The notes under the pieces: generated by a model
What the model saw: only the letters and a program-made list of their open reading frames with translations
Databases searched by the model: none
Told to the model about the DNA's origin: nothing
In this document: positions 20,113 to 37,437 of the stretch, in pieces
Numbering within the stretch: position 1 is the stretch's first letter
How the letters are laid out: each line of letters begins with the position of its first letter
Position numbers and translations under genes: made by a program
DNA from: an uncultured virus (IMG/VR IMGVR_UViG_3300029305_005184)
Lineage: Duplodnaviria > Heunggongvirae > Uroviricota > Caudoviricetes
Direction: 5' to 3' (one strand)
IMG/VR virus record: IMGVR_UViG_3300029305_005184
DNA length: 64,000 bases

Positions 20113-20141
20113 ATTATAGCCCCATATTGGGGCATTGTCAA
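20113..20141 (-). promoter_or_regulatory. sigmaA promoter with embedded operator (copy 2)
   Basis: Minus strand TTGACA-ATGCCCCAATATGGGGC-TATAAT. Confidence 0.88.
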
Positions 20142-22395: not shown

Positions 22396-22424
22396 ATTAT
22401 AGTCCATATTTGGATTTATGTCAA
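22396..22424 (-). promoter_or_regulatory. leftward promoter overlapping a TCCA-N4-TGGA operator
   Basis: Minus strand TTGACA-TAAATCCAAATATGGAC-TATAAT. Confidence 0.8.
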
Positions 22425-24946: not shown

Positions 24947-26224
24947 ATGGAAAAGAAACGCTGCCGTAAACGAAAGGGACAACGCAAGGACGGCACCTTT
25001 GCTGTATACGGCGACTATGGACGTGATGCCGAAGGAAAGCGTATACGCAAGACATTCTACGGCGAAACGCTGGAGGAAGCAAATTACAAGAAAGCTCAAT
25101 ACGAGCGTGATATTGCCGACGGCATGAGTGTGGATGCTCATAAGATGAATGTGTCTGAATGGTGCGACAGCTGGATGCGCGTCTACAAATCAAAGCTAAA
25201 AGGCACAAATCGGGTTTCATACGAAGCGAATGTCGCACGGCTCAAAGAGGACATCGGGCAGATGATGGTCAAAGATGTTCGCAACTATCATCTGCAAAAG
25301 TCGCTTAATAACATGGAGGGTATGTCCGAGAGCGCGATCAGCAAATACAAGATGGTAATCCAGCAGATATTCCGACGCGCCAAGCAAAATAAGATCATAC
25401 GCGACAATCCGGCCGAAGACCTCGACATTCCCGGAGGAACCAGCGGCGGACATCGCGCCCTTGAACGCTGGGAGGCCGACTTCATAATTGAGCATTACCA
25501 TCAGCATCGAGCTGGTCTTTGGATGATGCTCATGCTTCTTGCCGGTCTGCGCCGCAGCGAGATGATCGCACTTCAGTGGGATTGCGTTGATCTGGAAAAC
25601 AGAACCCTTCAAGTGCGCCGCGCTGCTGAGATCGTATCGAATCAGGCGGTTATAAAAGAATGGACAAAATCCGATGCAGGTCTGCGCATGCTCCCGATCT
25701 GCGATGCGCTTTATGTCGCCCTCAGCGCCATTCCTGAAAATTGTCGCAAAGGCCATGTATGCTTATCAGCAAACAATAAGCTGATCTCTCAATCTGCCTT
25801 TGATCGTGGCATGGACGGATTCAATCTTGCGATGGAACGTCTGCTCAACGACGAACCGCTTACACAACGAGGCCGCCGGACGGATGTTGAAAGAAAAAGA
25901 ACAACTAAAGCGAACAACATAACAACTAATACAACAACTGATGCAACAACAGAAGAAAGTATCGCAACAACAGAAGAAAAACTCCCGAAACGCAAGACTT
26001 TCTCTATCGAAGCTCACGATCTGCGATATACTTTTGCAACTGCATTGTATGACGCTGGAATTGATGTAAAATCAGCCCAGTACTACATGGGGCATAGCGA
26101 CATCCGTATGACAATGAATATCTACACGCAGCTCTCAAAGGAAAGAGAAAATCAGGCGCGTGCCGCAACGATAGAATTCCTCGATTCCTGGCTGCAAAAA
26201 GAGGCACCAAAGATGCAAAAATAA
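24947..26224 (+). CDS. int: Tyrosine integrase
   Basis: Arm-binding N-terminus; AGLRRSE, TKS, HDLRYTFAT, MGHSDIRMTMNIY. Confidence 0.95.
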   Translation: MEKKRCRKRKGQRKDGTFAVYGDYGRDAEGKRIRKTFYGETLEEANYKKAQYERDIADGMSVDAHKMNVSEWCDSWMRVYKSKLKGTNRVSYEANVARLKEDIGQMMVKDVRNYHLQKSLNNMEGMSESAISKYKMVIQQIFRRAKQNKIIRDNPAEDLDIPGGTSGGHRALERWEADFIIEHYHQHRAGLWMMLMLLAGLRRSEMIALQWDCVDLENRTLQVRRAAEIVSNQAVIKEWTKSDAGLRMLPICDALYVALSAIPENCRKGHVCLSANNKLISQSAFDRGMDGFNLAMERLLNDEPLTQRGRRTDVERKRTTKANNITTNTTTDATTEESIATTEEKLPKRKTFSIEAHDLRYTFATALYDAGIDVKSAQYYMGHSDIRMTMNIYTQLSKERENQARAATIEFLDSWLQKEAPKMQK

Positions 26225-26754: not shown

Positions 26755-26783
26755 TTGACAATGCCCCATAAAGGGGCTATAAT
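26755..26783 (+). promoter_or_regulatory. sigmaA promoter with embedded operator (copy 4)
   Basis: TTGACA-ATGCCCCATAAAGGGGC-TATAAT. Confidence 0.88.
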
Positions 26784-27537: not shown

Positions 27538-27614
27538 AGGCCTTTAGCTCAGCTGGTCAGAGCGGCAGACTCATAATCTGCAAGTCTCGGGTTCGACCCC
27601 CGAAAGGCCCACCA
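27538..27614 (+). tRNA. tRNA-CAT (Met or Ile2)
   Basis: Full cloverleaf; GCAGA-CTCATAA-TCTGC; ends ACCA; A1:C72 mismatch. Confidence 0.88.
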
Positions 27615-27969
27615 GCCGGTAATGCTATGACCATCCTCGCAAGATAGAGAAAGGCGCGAGGCTGCCGAAAAAAGTCGGCACGACAAGCATTGACACCCGG
27701 AACAGACGGAGAGATCAGAAAGGAGGCGGACAGGTGTACGTTTGGATTATCGTTATAATTCTGCAGATTGCGCAGGCAAAAGCTGGCAAAATGCCCGATC
27801 TCTCGGAATTTCGCTTATCCGCAAAAACGAAATGGCATTCGTCCGCAACCGGCGTCTAAATATTTATAAAGCGTGCCAGCAATACGCATCGCAGATAGAC
27901 ATGTTCAAACACATTGACCGCTTTCGCCAAAAACGCGAGGCGAAAGCGGTTTTTCACAAAAGGCTCTGT

Positions 27970-28069
27970 GCAGATGTAGGTAACGCAAAGGTATGTGTTT
28001 TCCCTGCGAACCCATATATTTCACCTCCAGTCCCCTTTGCTGACGGTTCGATTCCGTTGATCTGCTCCC
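27970..28069 (+). ncRNA. tRNA-like structured RNA lacking canonical D and anticodon arms
   Basis: GCAGAT/ATCTGC acceptor-like stem; GACGG-TTCGATT-CCGTT T arm; long GCAAAGG/CCTTTGC helix. Confidence 0.5.
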
Positions 28070-28118
28070 CCTGGGCCGCCTTTACGCCATAATAAGGCGG
28101 CCTTTTATCATGCAATAT

Positions 28119-28193
28119 AGTGGCGTAGCCAAGCGGTAAGGCACCGGGTTTTGACCCCGGCATTCGTCGGTTCGAGTCCGGCCGCCACTGCCA
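28119..28193 (+). tRNA. tRNA-Gln(TTG)
   Basis: AGTGGCG/CGCCACT; CCGGG-TTTTGAC-CCCGG; GCCA end. Confidence 0.92.
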
Positions 28194-28218
28194 ATTCATA
28201 ATTTGATCCTTGCAGTAA

Positions 28219-28294
28219 CGGAGTGTAGCGCAGTTGGCAGCGCACGTGCTTTGGGAGCATGATGTCGCAGGTTCGATTCCTGTCACTCCGACCA
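28219..28294 (+). tRNA. tRNA-Pro(TGG)
   Basis: CGGAGTG/CACTCCG; CGTGC-TTTGGGA-GCATG; ACCA end. Confidence 0.93.
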
Positions 28295-28297
28295 CAA

Positions 28298-28372
28298 GCT
28301 GGTGTAGCTCAATGGCAGAGCAACTGAGTTGTAATCAGTGGGTTGCGGGTTCAAGTCCTGTCACCAGCTCCA
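28298..28372 (+). tRNA. tRNA-Thr(TGT)
   Basis: GCTGGTG/CACCAGC; ACTGA-GTTGTAA-TCAGT; TCCA end. Confidence 0.9.
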
Positions 28373-32699: not shown

Positions 32700-33552
32700 C
32701 ATCAAGATCGAACAAACGGTAACTGAATCGAAACCTGAGCGCGACAGCTGCCACGGCTGCGCTCACGATCTGGGCGGCGGTTGCTGCGGCGCTCATCTGG
32801 AGCATGAGTGCGCCGCCGGTGGCGGATATGAAGCATTCCAACCCAAGCAGCCTGAGAAAAGTAACCCGGAGAATACTGAGAAAAAGCAAGCTCGAAACGA
32901 TATGGCGCATGCTTGTATTGAAGGCATTCTTGCCGAACCCATTTCCTACAGCCATACGTCTTTCGGCAGAACGTTCTACCGCTGCGCTGTCAATGTCGCA
33001 CGGCTCTCCGGCACGATAGACAATGTGCCGATCATCATTCCCGGCGATCTGCTTGCGCCCATCAACATCAATCAGACTGCTCCTGGCGTGCGAATGCACG
33101 TCGAAGGCAGCTTGCGCGTTTACCCGGATGCCCATGCGGATTACCTGCGAACGATAGTTGCTGTTTATGCCTGCAAATTGGAGATCAAAAGCGATGAAAA
33201 ACCAAAAATCTGCAAGGACATCGACATCAACAGCATCCGCATCGTCGGCACGATCTGCCGTGCGCCGTCGTATAGAATAACACCCTTCGGCCGCGAGATA
33301 TGCGACATCATGATTGCGGTGCGCCGCGGCACTTACGGAAAGGTAGATACCATTCCCTGCATTGCGTGGGGTTCTGCAGCCAAGAACGCAAGCAAGATGG
33401 CAAATGGCGAATCAATCAGCATCACAGGTCGCTTTCAATCCAGAATCTATGAAAAACAGGTCGAAGGCGAAGAACTCCGAAAATTGTGCGCCCGTGAAAT
33501 ATCCATCTTCCATCTGAACCCTTCCGATGAAACTGAAGAAAATCCAAAGTGA
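32689..33552 (+). CDS. tandem-OB-fold single-stranded DNA-binding protein
   Basis: RLSGTIDNVP; YRITPFGREICDIMIAV; DTIPCIAWG; GRFQSRIYEK. Confidence 0.85.
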   Translation: MKDDIKIEQTVTESKPERDSCHGCAHDLGGGCCGAHLEHECAAGGGYEAFQPKQPEKSNPENTEKKQARNDMAHACIEGILAEPISYSHTSFGRTFYRCAVNVARLSGTIDNVPIIIPGDLLAPININQTAPGVRMHVEGSLRVYPDAHADYLRTIVAVYACKLEIKSDEKPKICKDIDINSIRIVGTICRAPSYRITPFGREICDIMIAVRRGTYGKVDTIPCIAWGSAAKNASKMANGESISITGRFQSRIYEKQVEGEELRKLCAREISIFHLNPSDETEENPK

Positions 33553-33574
33553 GCCTATCGTGGCTCACTTTTTT
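33549..33574 (+). terminator. intrinsic terminator
   Basis: GTGAGCC-TATCGT-GGCTCAC-TTTTT. Confidence 0.8.
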
Positions 33575-33607
33575 CTGCATTTTCTTCAAAACAATTACTT
33601 TTTACTA

Positions 33608-33636
33608 TTGACAGAAAGTAATTTAGAGTATATAAT
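33608..33636 (+). promoter_or_regulatory. consensus sigmaA promoter without the GCCCC operator
   Basis: TTGACA-17 bp-TATAAT ahead of a run of small genes. Confidence 0.75.
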
Positions 33637-33676
33637 AAATCCATCAACAGGAGAACACAGACAAGGAGAAAGAACA

Positions 33677-33826
33677 ATGACCACACGCGAACTGAGAAAG
33701 ATGCTGTTTGAAGTAGAAAATCAGGAACTGACCATCAAGGAGCTGCGCGACATCCTGTTTCAGGTTGAAGATCAGGACAAAGAACTGACCGATACCGCAA
33801 TCAAGCGCCTGACTTACAACAAGTGA
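33677..33826 (+). CDS. small protein with internal duplication
   Basis: AAGGAG RBS; ELRKMLFEVENQE / ELRDILFQVEDQD. Confidence 0.65.
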   Translation: MTTRELRKMLFEVENQELTIKELRDILFQVEDQDKELTDTAIKRLTYNK

Positions 33827-33844
33827 GAACGGAGGACGGGAACG

Positions 33845-34006
33845 ATGGCAGTTATCATTGAGATCAAAGTAAATGGCGAATGGAAGCTCTGGCAGAAATA
33901 CGATCAGTGCGCTATGGGGCACACCCCCAAAGAGAGAGCTGAAATGGGCATGAAGGTTGCAAGCTGCTATGGCGAGTGCAGAATGATTGAAATTGAGAGC
34001 AAGTAA
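33845..34006 (+). CDS. small hypothetical protein (not in ORF track)
   Basis: GGAGG RBS; 53 aa MAVIIEIKVNGEWK... Confidence 0.55.
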   Translation: MAVIIEIKVNGEWKLWQKYDQCAMGHTPKERAEMGMKVASCYGECRMIEIESK

Positions 34007-34019
34007 AGAGGAAATAAAA

Positions 34020-34265
34020 ATGAAGAAGTTCGAGAGCTTAAAAGTGAGCGAGATCAAAAAGGCAGAAAAGGTTGCAAATGAATATTTCAACCGTAATGAT
34101 TGCAAGGTCACAGGTTATTCTTCTCAAAAAAGCGATATCGAAGGTTTCTACGACGTAGATTGTGAGATTTGCTTCAATTATGAAGAACGCGCCCCTTACG
34201 ACGTACTGGTTTCTGTAATGATAACAGATCGCCGCCGCAGCTTTGCAACCATTAAAACGTGGTAA
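34020..34265 (+). CDS. hypothetical protein
   Basis: GAGG RBS before MKKFES. Confidence 0.6.
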   Translation: MKKFESLKVSEIKKAEKVANEYFNRNDCKVTGYSSQKSDIEGFYDVDCEICFNYEERAPYDVLVSVMITDRRRSFATIKTW

Positions 34266-34267
34266 TA

Positions 34268-34323
34268 GCCGAAACGCCTTTGGGTGTCACCGTGAGCTGC
34301 CCCACACGGTCTGATGATGGCAG
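34268..34323 (+). ncRNA. type II hammerhead ribozyme
   Basis: GCC-GAAA-CGCC(TTTG)GGTG-TC-ACCGTG(loop)CACGGT-CTGATGA-T-GGC: all core nucleotides and three stems; intergenic. Confidence 0.85.
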
Positions 34324-34342
34324 GACAGAAAGGATGATCACA

Positions 34343-34732
34343 ATGAAGGAAGCTAAACTGAAGATCGCCAAAGAGTTCATCGGAAAATACACTGAATGGC
34401 TGGGCGACTACAACAACCCCGAGCTGCCCGATAAGGAATACGGGAAGAAGTACGGCTGGGGCAGAGGCGCATTGGAAATGAAGGACACCCAGAAATCCAT
34501 GCTTTGGTTCCAGAGTCACATCTTCAGTGGCAAGTACATCTGGCAGTGGAAAAAAGATGGCATCGAACTGCAAACGCTTGTTGGACTTCACCGCGATGGT
34601 TTCCTTTCCTATGACTTCTATTCTTCACATCGGGCAAGAATGTTGGGAAAAACGGATTTCTACTACATCAGCCAGAACAAAGCAAAGGAAATCTACAAGG
34701 CGTACAAAAACGGTTTCTTTGCTGAAGTATAA
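34343..34732 (+). CDS. hypothetical protein
   Basis: AAAGGA RBS right after the ribozyme. Confidence 0.7.
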   Translation: MKEAKLKIAKEFIGKYTEWLGDYNNPELPDKEYGKKYGWGRGALEMKDTQKSMLWFQSHIFSGKYIWQWKKDGIELQTLVGLHRDGFLSYDFYSSHRARMLGKTDFYYISQNKAKEIYKAYKNGFFAEV

Positions 34733-34776
34733 CCAACGGCCCGCCGGGAGCCTATCCCGGCAGAAAGGGCAGAACC

Positions 34777-34953
34777 ATGAAGATCATCACCAAGAAGTAC
34801 CTCACCGCCTTCTATGGCGTTACCGGCAGCGTAACAACGTATGCGGACGGCTCCGCTCGCCTGAAGATCAAACAAGCCGGAAAATTGCTGCATAACAAGG
34901 TTCACAAGAGCGAAAGAGCTGCTATGTCTGCGTGGTATAGAGCAAACGCATAA
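34777..34953 (+). CDS. small basic hypothetical protein (not in ORF track)
   Basis: 58 aa MKIITKKYLTAFYG... Confidence 0.55.
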   Translation: MKIITKKYLTAFYGVTGSVTTYADGSARLKIKQAGKLLHNKVHKSERAAMSAWYRANA

Positions 34954-36948: not shown

Positions 36949-36968
36949 CTTACGAAAGGACGATCACA

Positions 36969-37412
36969 ATGTACGCAGTAAAACTTAAAACCAATCTGGA
37001 AATCGAGATGGTGGAAATTCCGGCAAATAAGTCGTTTATTGATTTTTGCCATGAGCAGATCGGATGCGACACTGTGGAAAGGGTACACCCCCGCAATCTG
37101 GAAGAACCTTATGTGATGATGATCGACGAAGAAGGTCTGATGACGGCAAAACCGATTATCAACTTCATCGGGTCATATCTCTACGGCACCCATGAACATC
37201 AGCAGCCCATTGTAGGAGACGCCTTGATCGCGATACAGAACGGACCAAACATCGGCGGCATGAGTTTTGAAAAAGCACAAGTCATGCTGATCAAGATGTC
37301 TGCAATCAGCACAATGGCCTACAAAAAGGTCTGGCGAGCAATGGCTCACCTTCTGCATCCGATGGAAGAAGCACAGATCCACCCTGACCCGGGCAACGGC
37401 TTTTTATGTTGA
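36969..37412 (+). CDS. DUF3846-like protein
   Basis: IGCDTVE, MMIDEEGL, N..S.LYG, IVGDALI. Confidence 0.7.
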   Translation: MYAVKLKTNLEIEMVEIPANKSFIDFCHEQIGCDTVERVHPRNLEEPYVMMIDEEGLMTAKPIINFIGSYLYGTHEHQQPIVGDALIAIQNGPNIGGMSFEKAQVMLIKMSAISTMAYKKVWRAMAHLLHPMEEAQIHPDPGNGFLC

Positions 37413-37437
37413 CAATGCCCCATAATGGGGCTATAAT
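37409..37437 (+). promoter_or_regulatory. sigmaA promoter with embedded operator (copy 5)
   Basis: TTGACA-ATGCCCCATAATGGGGC-TATAAT. Confidence 0.88.

Follow-up and report, generated by a model that had tools for sequence, protein, structure and literature searches.

Sequence analysis of a type II hammerhead ribozyme between small genes of an uncultured temperate phage

The motif found between genes 3 and 4 of a small-gene operon of an uncultured phage (IMG/VR IMGVR_UViG_3300029305_005184) is, judged from its sequence, a genuine type II hammerhead ribozyme. It is an ordinary instance of the type II hammerheads between phage genes, known since 2011. The whole stretch of DNA analysed is 64,000 nt long and is called the window here; all positions refer to it, and the ribozyme and the operon genes around it are coded on the + strand.

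The phage, its operon and the ribozyme

The window represents a tailed temperate phage with an integrase gene (24947-26224), terminase-like and head protease genes, a major capsid protein, and four tRNAs, the genes of which are located at 27538-28369. DNA near-identical to the window is carried by runs from animal faeces or gut (22 runs listed, none of them an RNA run). As top matches, a capsid search gave Dulem virus 37 and a faecal phage that has no annotation. The gut origin and the distribution of the hammerhead family suggest a possible Clostridia-type host. The nearest virus record, G001, is a fragment (29% complete) that has neither the ribozyme locus nor any hammerhead.

A perfect sigma-70/sigma-A consensus promoter (TTGACA-17-TATAAT) was identified on the + strand at 33608-33636, with the probable transcription start of the operon near 33643. 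About 13 small genes follow on the same strand. Gene 1 (33677-33826) codes for 49 aa, gene 2 (33845-34006) for 53 aa, and gene 3 (34020-34265), the upstream neighbour of the ribozyme, for 81 aa; the downstream neighbour, gene 4 (34343-34732), codes for 129 aa and is skipped in close relatives, and gene 5 (34777-34953) codes for 58 aa and has a homologue directly after the Shine-Dalgarno sequence (SD) of the ribozyme in these relatives. PHROGs and Pfam gave no family for the first 12 operon genes, genes 1 to 4 included, and gene 13 is a DUF3846 gene. In IMG/VR, no relative was found for the protein of gene 4, and for that of gene 3 a sole match 15 residues long (L247); neither product is named in the protein Atlas. 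The ribozyme is located about 650 nt behind the promoter, between a stop codon and an SD. The preliminary description had placed it in an early small-gene operon; a small-gene spacer driven by a promoter is borne out, and the operon can be regarded as probably early from its promoter and the type of its genes.

There are six perfect sigma-70 consensus promoters in the window, while 0.01 would be expected by chance. Four of them, at 1609-1637 and 20113-20141 on the - strand and at 26755-26783 and 37409-37437 on the + strand, have in common a near-palindromic GCCCCA...GGGG spacer that resembles a phage repressor operator, and four similar copies of this promoter type are present on the record G001. 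The other two are located at 22396-22424 (-) and in front of the ribozyme operon. The promoter of the ribozyme operon is without the GCCCCA...GGGG spacer, a short inverted repeat (TTACT/AGTAA) spans its -35 box, and it may be under separate control. Just upstream of it, at 33546-33575, a strong hairpin is followed by a T run on the + strand; A/T runs flank the hairpin on both sides, and the terminator scan called it on the - strand. It is likely a terminator isolating the operon.

Gene 3 ends with TAA (34263-65), followed by an in-frame TAG (34266-68), the last base of which, G34268, is the first base of stem II. The 5' strand of stem II (GCC, 34268-34270) pairs with GGC at 34319-21, and the core bases G12, A13, A14, and A15.1 (GAAA) occupy 34271-34274. 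The stem III hairpin (34274-34287) has a 4-nt loop and five pairs between 34274-78 and 34283-87, namely A-U, C-G, G.U, C-G, and C-G, of which A34274-U34287 is the A15.1-U16.1 pair. The GTC triplet (34286-88) ends with C34288, which represents C17 (H17), and the hammerhead consensus position predicts a cut between C34288 and A34289. The stem I hairpin (34289-34310) consists of six Watson-Crick pairs (34289-94/34305-10) and the 10-nt loop I. The core segment C3 U4 G5 A6 N7 G8 A9 (CUGAUGA) at 34311-34317 is followed by an extra U at 34318, and then by the 3' strand of stem II with the linker A34322 (34319-34322), conserved as A in 51 of 52 relatives. Stems I and III both end in loops and stem II is open, with the G10.1-C11.1 pair formed, as in the type II topology. 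Most type II members have a pseudoknot of at least four pairs from loop I to the 3' tail; here, the strand 34297-34302 in loop I faces 34323-34328, and five of six pairs are formed, with C34300 opposite A34325 as a mismatch. The SD of gene 4 (34327-34334) overlaps the pseudoknot end by 2 nt and precedes the start codon ATG at 34343. Both core segments, the GTC triplet with the cleavage position after C34288, the three stems, and the location between the stop codon TAA and the ATG of gene 4 are all as the preliminary description had them.

A covariance-model search, proposed there as a check, gave a match that stood below the cut-off: Rfam Hammerhead_II (RF02276) aligned over its whole length to 34267-34329 with 30.2 bits (E 0.003), against a gathering score of 37, which is a curation threshold and no structural feature. 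Close relatives reached 39-69 bits with the same model, and three copies with a similar loop I 38.7-44.7 bits. When the whole window was scanned against Rfam, only the four tRNAs were found at gathering score. A type II descriptor matched the window once, at the ribozyme site; of 200 dinucleotide-shuffled versions of the window, two were matched. A look-alike at 37134-37155 was rejected, as it lies inside a coding sequence and has no descriptor match, and so was an in-frame GTG at 34259 that would extend gene 4 across the ribozyme, with no SD visible upstream of it. The exact stem I pattern had no match in JGI metagenomes.

The extra-U subfamily, folding and the pseudoknot

A search pattern with the core spacing of the window recognized at least 124 IMG/VR loci, from which 114 distinct copies, the window included, were parsed. 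Among the matches listed, the outer pair of stem II is formed in 111 of the 114 distinct copies, eight of them with two-sided changes; the two inner pairs are fixed by the search pattern and hence lie outside the covariation test. The outer pair fixes the register and so identifies U34318 as a base inserted between A9 and G10.1. Reading it as a U10.1.C11.1 mismatch instead was rejected, since the outer pair covaries solely in the extra-U register. A scan that did not fix this position gave 123 matches at 122 loci. Proper stems were formed in 33 of these matches: 21 were canonical, nine had an extra U, one had an extra G, and two lacked stem II. In GTDB genomes, 122 of 126 pattern matches were well formed, and the 80 titles listed are largely Clostridia, with Planctomycetota, Streptomyces, Paenibacillus, and Vibrio also present. 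On these alignments, the extra U34318 is the mark of a common subfamily of phage type II hammerheads. Extra-U copies scored 62-69 bits against RF02276 at all five loci tested, and the Rfam model thus already covers the subfamily. Among canonical type II copies, many have CCGAUGA in place of CUGAUGA in otherwise intact ribozymes; this U4C core variant was found in the second spacer of L250, L268, L271, L276, L285, and others.

In its permutation, core, short stem II, pseudoknot between loop I and tail, and varying small phage genes as neighbours, the ribozyme resembles RF02276 and the type II hammerheads of Perreault et al. 2011 (PMC3088659). It differs from them in that it scores below the cut-off, has a pseudoknot with a C.A mismatch and a stem III that is weak, and occurs as a single and not a tandem copy. 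In the portion of Perreault et al. 2011 (PMC3088659) examined, no mention is made of an extra U behind A9. The extra-U string had no match in the searchable supplements of that paper; since alignment gaps there may conceal it, its absence does not indicate novelty. An insertion between A9 and G10.1 is also a feature of the hammerheads of the CChMVd viroid (De la Pena and Flores 2001, via the review PMC3705267), in which a U at this position is reported to have raised trans-cleavage 3-4-fold. The viroid is an RNA replicon, its hammerheads use loop-loop tertiary contacts, and its natural nucleotide at this position is A (PMC3705267), while the window is a DNA phage with a type II ribozyme, a pseudoknot, and a natural U.

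Covariation in related phages, also named beforehand as a check, is clear. When the 52 copies whose stem I hairpin measures 22 nt were aligned (gap-free), 99.4% of stem I was paired, and all six pairs had two-sided changes. The conserved pseudoknot joins loop I with the five bases after the linker A, which corresponds to the helix 34297-34302/34323-34328 in the window; 84.6% of its cells are paired, and all five pairs have two-sided changes. Its covariation score was reached by none of 500 shuffles, and slid controls gave 31-46% for the whole structure. Among the matches listed, a pseudoknot of at least 5 bp is present in 70 of 114 copies, versus a mean of 28 in 1000 shuffles of the tail. The preliminary description had paired loop I with GGCAG, and this part did not hold: such a helix would consume stem II, it is complete in only three of 52 relatives, and the real contact is one register downstream. 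In the GGCAG register, 60.4% of cells are paired and none of five pairs has a two-sided change, although its 3' strand is partly fixed by the search pattern, which makes covariation there impossible.

The mismatch C34300.A34325 takes the place of the central pseudoknot pair. In the 52 relatives, this column is G-C in 21, A-U in 18, C-G in nine, and other in four (intact in 48 of 52), and of 97 genome copies, 96 preserve the central pair. In six selected relatives whose loop is similar, the position mismatched in the window is G throughout. The window adds an outer C-G pair to the pseudoknot that was found in 13 of 52 relatives. Contigs of the runs X3 and X9 share the mismatch, so it is no sequencing error; one other viral contig has it (L379), and its stem III is broken. 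Shortening of a type II pseudoknot from 6 to 4 bp lowered the rate about 20-fold (PMC3088659). Given this loss, a slower but not dead ribozyme is expected, and by analogy the mismatch may slow the ribozyme of the window.

The minimum-energy fold of 34262-34336 has stems I, II, and III (-16.0 kcal/mol), with pair probabilities of 0.47, 0.47, and 0.57, respectively. The wider segment 34255-34345 has a non-hammerhead fold as its minimum-energy structure, the stability of which does not exceed that of shuffles (z +1.05). As predicted by a folding program that cannot model pseudoknots, the hammerhead fold is thus marginal without the pseudoknot. Stem III is weaker than in most relatives (pair probability 0.59 versus a median of 0.99, with six of 51 lower), as is the pseudoknot duplex (-5.3 kcal/mol versus a median of -7.7, with just six of 51 weaker). 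The competing CUGCC/GGCAG helix has a probability of 0.21 in the nested ensemble and a duplex energy of -9.0, compared with -5.3 for the native one.

Spacing and gene turnover at the spacers

The spacing from stop codon to ribozyme to SD is conserved across the family. It was examined in 77 distinct copies, the window included, with at least 400 nt on each side. The upstream reading frame stops at most 15 nt from G12 in 65 of them, the median distance between stop and G12 is 3 nt (71 copies with a called frame), and 45 of 77 have an SD with start codon at most 35 nt downstream. On the antisense strand used as control, a stop within 30 nt was found in nine of 77 and an SD with start in none of 77. 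An in-frame stop within the four bases before the CC of stem II is present in 39 of 75 upstream contexts, in which related upstream genes are incompletely collapsed, compared with 13 of 318 stop triplets further upstream. TAG terminates nine of 12 upstream gene families versus 20 of 60 others. Of the 63 copies for which a start was called, 27 have an SD that begins 8 nt behind UGG, directly after the pseudoknot. Some of this spacing could result from phage spacers being compact in general.

Four of the 22 listed runs were compared with the window at this locus. From the promoter through genes 1-3 and the ribozyme to 34335, X6, X9, and X13 are 95-99% identical to the window; beyond this point they diverge. 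In X6 and X9, 34335 is joined to 34858 via 86 other letters and gene 4 is skipped, while X13 passes from the SD into the start of a gene 5 homologue. The 86 letters fit a 5-nt spacer followed by a 5' portion of gene 5 that has diverged; gene 4, together with the hairpin behind it, is therefore a presence/absence cassette, whose left edge by this comparison is the SD of the ribozyme. The heptamer of this SD recurs at 34762-68, closing the cassette. Within the ribozyme, two substitutions in X9 give G.U wobbles in stem I and the pseudoknot, and X6 has one substitution in loop III.

The cassette is closed by a second spacer motif at 34737-34768 (+), a GC-rich hairpin with an SD, for which no Rfam family, ribozymes included, scored at its cut-off. 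The hairpin resembles the stem I hairpin of some hammerhead relatives, has no core, and is located just ahead of a start codon in four IMG/VR contigs. Its assignment to M23 RNA was rejected (18.9 bits against a cut-off of 41.2, E 4.3). A sequence of 18 nt from SD to ATG is common to gene 4 (34328-34345) and the DUF3846 gene (36954-36971), with 17 of 18 letters identical, and could possibly serve as microhomology for gene exchange.

Gene order was compared in a phage group rich in the extra-U subfamily, with 65 of 79 loci used and 63 distinct arrangements; of the earlier rounds, one had kept seven loci and was discarded as underpowered, and another had 33 of 66 motifs. Operons of these phages are strings of small genes parted by spacers of about 85 nt, which are of four types: extra-U hammerhead, canonical hammerhead, a T-loop-like motif, and a third motif. 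When the upstream gene belonged to the same family, the downstream neighbour was shared in 24 of 161 pairs across hammerhead spacers, compared with 59 of 82 across gaps of at most 30 nt. None of 17 upstream families kept a single downstream partner across hammerhead spacers, compared with seven of 11 across short gaps (Fisher p 2.8e-4), and in the reverse direction a single partner was kept in four of 17 and 11 of 15, respectively (p 0.012). These counts come from heuristic gene calls, non-independent pairs, and loci chosen via the ribozyme. T-loop spacers, which are not ribozymes, behave alike (neighbour shared in 11 of 36 pairs), and turnover is therefore a property of the conserved spacers and not of catalysis.

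The T-loop-like motif, about 85 nt long and with a hairpin like the T-loop of tRNA, was found at 37 junctions in related phages, and the third motif, also about 85 nt long and beginning with CCGCCGCAGAG, at 13 junctions. Both are located about 300-1400 nt downstream of hammerheads, usually after them (L264, L266, L279, L285, L295, and others), and in the five loci scanned they had only weak, chance-level Rfam matches. They are candidates for novel structured RNAs, with a context of the ribozyme type. L319 has, about 240 nt downstream of its hammerhead, a chimeric spacer, in which the 5' part of a hammerhead is fused to the CCGCCGCAGAG motif, and L255 and L311 have hammerheads with damaged cores.

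Another conserved intergenic element in a region of non-essential small genes that are gained, lost, and swapped is the PeSL of T4-type phages (Arbiol et al. 2010, PMC2839356), likewise a regulatory one. PeSLs are promoter-terminator DNA cassettes with shown mini-circles (PMC2839356), whereas the element of the window is a ribozyme with SD that would work at the RNA level. No promoter or terminator was called in 34266-34342. Gain, loss, and exchange of genes bounded at the element were found, with recombination inferred from gene order alone, and the window has one hammerhead where PeSLs are repeated in a genome.

Proposed function and its alternatives

The role of hammerheads in bacteria is described as largely unresolved in a 2019 review (PMC6765202). 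Type II hammerheads with a pseudoknot between loop I and the 3' tail, located beside changing prophage genes and active in vitro, were described by Perreault et al. 2011, who propose processing of long phage transcripts (PMC3088659). Tandem prophage hammerheads, including those of Clostridium scindens, cleaved within transcripts of about 2 kb (PMC3088659), and in Desulfovibrio cells, cleavage occurs at three type II hammerheads that lie close to phage-like genes (PMC8782182). For the window, we consider it fairly probable that the ribozyme is a working, somewhat slowed type II hammerhead that cuts the polycistronic transcript once, co-transcriptionally, after C34288. The central mismatch, the weak stem III, the competing helix, the non-hammerhead minimum-energy fold of the wider segment, and the score below the cut-off weigh against activity, as does the broken stem III of L379, the one other viral copy with this mismatch. 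Processing of polycistronic mRNA would fit the conserved spacing of stop codon, ribozyme, and SD, and it is a published hypothesis for such ribozymes (PMC3088659, PMC6765202).

According to this proposal, a single long message of about 13 small genes would start from the promoter at 33608. Stems III and I would fold locally, and the 3-bp stem II together with the pseudoknot of loop I and 3' tail would dock both; the 2'-OH of C17 would then attack the adjacent phosphate. The upstream piece (about 645 nt, genes 1-3) would end with the stem III hairpin and a 2',3'-cyclic phosphate. The downstream piece would open with the first paired base of stem I, which would bear the 5'-OH, and would have a fixed leader of 54 nt with its own SD. 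The cut would be in effect one-way, because the pieces are held by only three base pairs, and as both new ends are hairpins, two separately stable messages are the most likely outcome. Expression of the downstream gene would be freed from the upstream context, as by an insulator. Ribosomes that terminate at the stop of gene 3 or initiate at the SD would mask stem II or the pseudoknot and could modulate the rate of cleavage. The glmS ribozyme and RiboJ also self-cleave upstream of a coding region and give a message with 5'-OH, with decay (glmS, PMC3997798) or higher, context-free expression (RiboJ, PMC6206723) as the known outcomes. RNase J1 can enter at the 5'-OH end made by glmS (PMC3997798), and RiboJ, a ribozyme with a hairpin, raises downstream RNA and protein in E. 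coli (PMC6206723). However, glmS has a different fold and depends on a metabolite as cofactor, and RiboJ is an engineered element assayed in E. coli (PMC3997798, PMC6206723). As a 5'-OH end can be an entry site of RNase J1, stabilisation of the message is not assured.

It is unlikely that the copy in the window is decaying or nearly silent, with cleavage too slow to matter and the spacer kept for its stop codon context and SD. Such decay would agree with the location of the mismatch at the best-covarying position of the pseudoknot, its combination with a broken stem III in L379, the visibly broken copies in spacers of relatives (e.g., L255 and L311), and an Rfam score lower than in the three copies with a similar loop I. 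Against this, the core is intact, the extra outer pair compensates in the pseudoknot, and the mismatch is present in both X3 and X9 and hence persistent. X13 has 26 substitutions in 33570-34229 and none in 34230-34324, which is not significant (about 2.4 expected, 62-nt motif), and its substitution list leaves out sites near the alignment end, including 34325. A shut-off in the manner of glmS is improbable as well. In that case, RNase J1 would degrade the 5'-OH piece and genes 4 onward would be expressed briefly or below genes 1-3, for which the start of RNase J1 on the 5'-OH end of glmS (PMC3997798) and the frequent presence of the hammerhead family in Clostridia genomes would speak. By contrast, 27 of the 63 copies with a start called keep the SD directly behind the ribozyme, an arrangement suited to translating the cut product. 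RNase J requires a single-stranded 5' end, and the new 5' end would be the first paired base of a 6-bp stem.

A role at the DNA level, in which the conserved spacer is a homology joint for cassette swapping and cleavage is incidental, we regard as quite improbable. The joining of 34335 to 34858 without gene 4 in X6 and X9, the passage of X13 from the SD into the gene 5 homologue, the seldom shared downstream neighbours across hammerhead spacers (24/161, versus 59/82 across short gaps), and chimeric spacers such as that of L319 are what it would predict. But covariation of the stems and the pseudoknot shows selection on RNA structure and not on DNA identity, the same turnover occurs at non-ribozyme spacers (11/36), the window has a single hammerhead, and the loci of the comparison were picked by the ribozyme, with pairs non-independent. 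Highly improbable is a two-state switch, in which a signal would shift loop I between GGCAG (inactive, stem II broken) and the downstream strand (active). The GGCAG duplex is indeed stronger than the mismatched native one (-9.0 versus -5.3) and reaches a probability of 0.21, but all five of its pairs are present in three of 52 relatives only, none of the five has a two-sided change, and no ligand or trigger is evident.

Next to transcript processing by a working ribozyme, a more tentative reading appears possible, in which the 75-nt module of stop codon, ribozyme, and SD is a plug-and-play gene boundary: recombination would swap accessory genes, and cleavage would make each message independent of its neighbours. 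The parts of such a module would be the upstream stop codon, the ribozyme halves as protective hairpins on both products, and the downstream SD. In the literature searched, with most subscription journals outside the search, no published claim of a cassette or shuffling role for ribozymes in phages was found.

As a single motif, the ribozyme is of little weight: its kind, a type II hammerhead between genes of a phage, has been known since 2011, and its subfamily is covered by the Rfam model. The locus offers a natural test pair, with a pseudoknot-mismatched ribozyme and a strain-variable downstream gene whose boundary is at the SD. The family-wide spacing of stop codon, ribozyme, and SD, together with gene turnover at the spacers, gives concrete predictions on insulation and shuffling. 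If the plug-and-play reading is true, it would explain why early regions of phages are full of self-cleaving ribozymes beside ever-changing genes.
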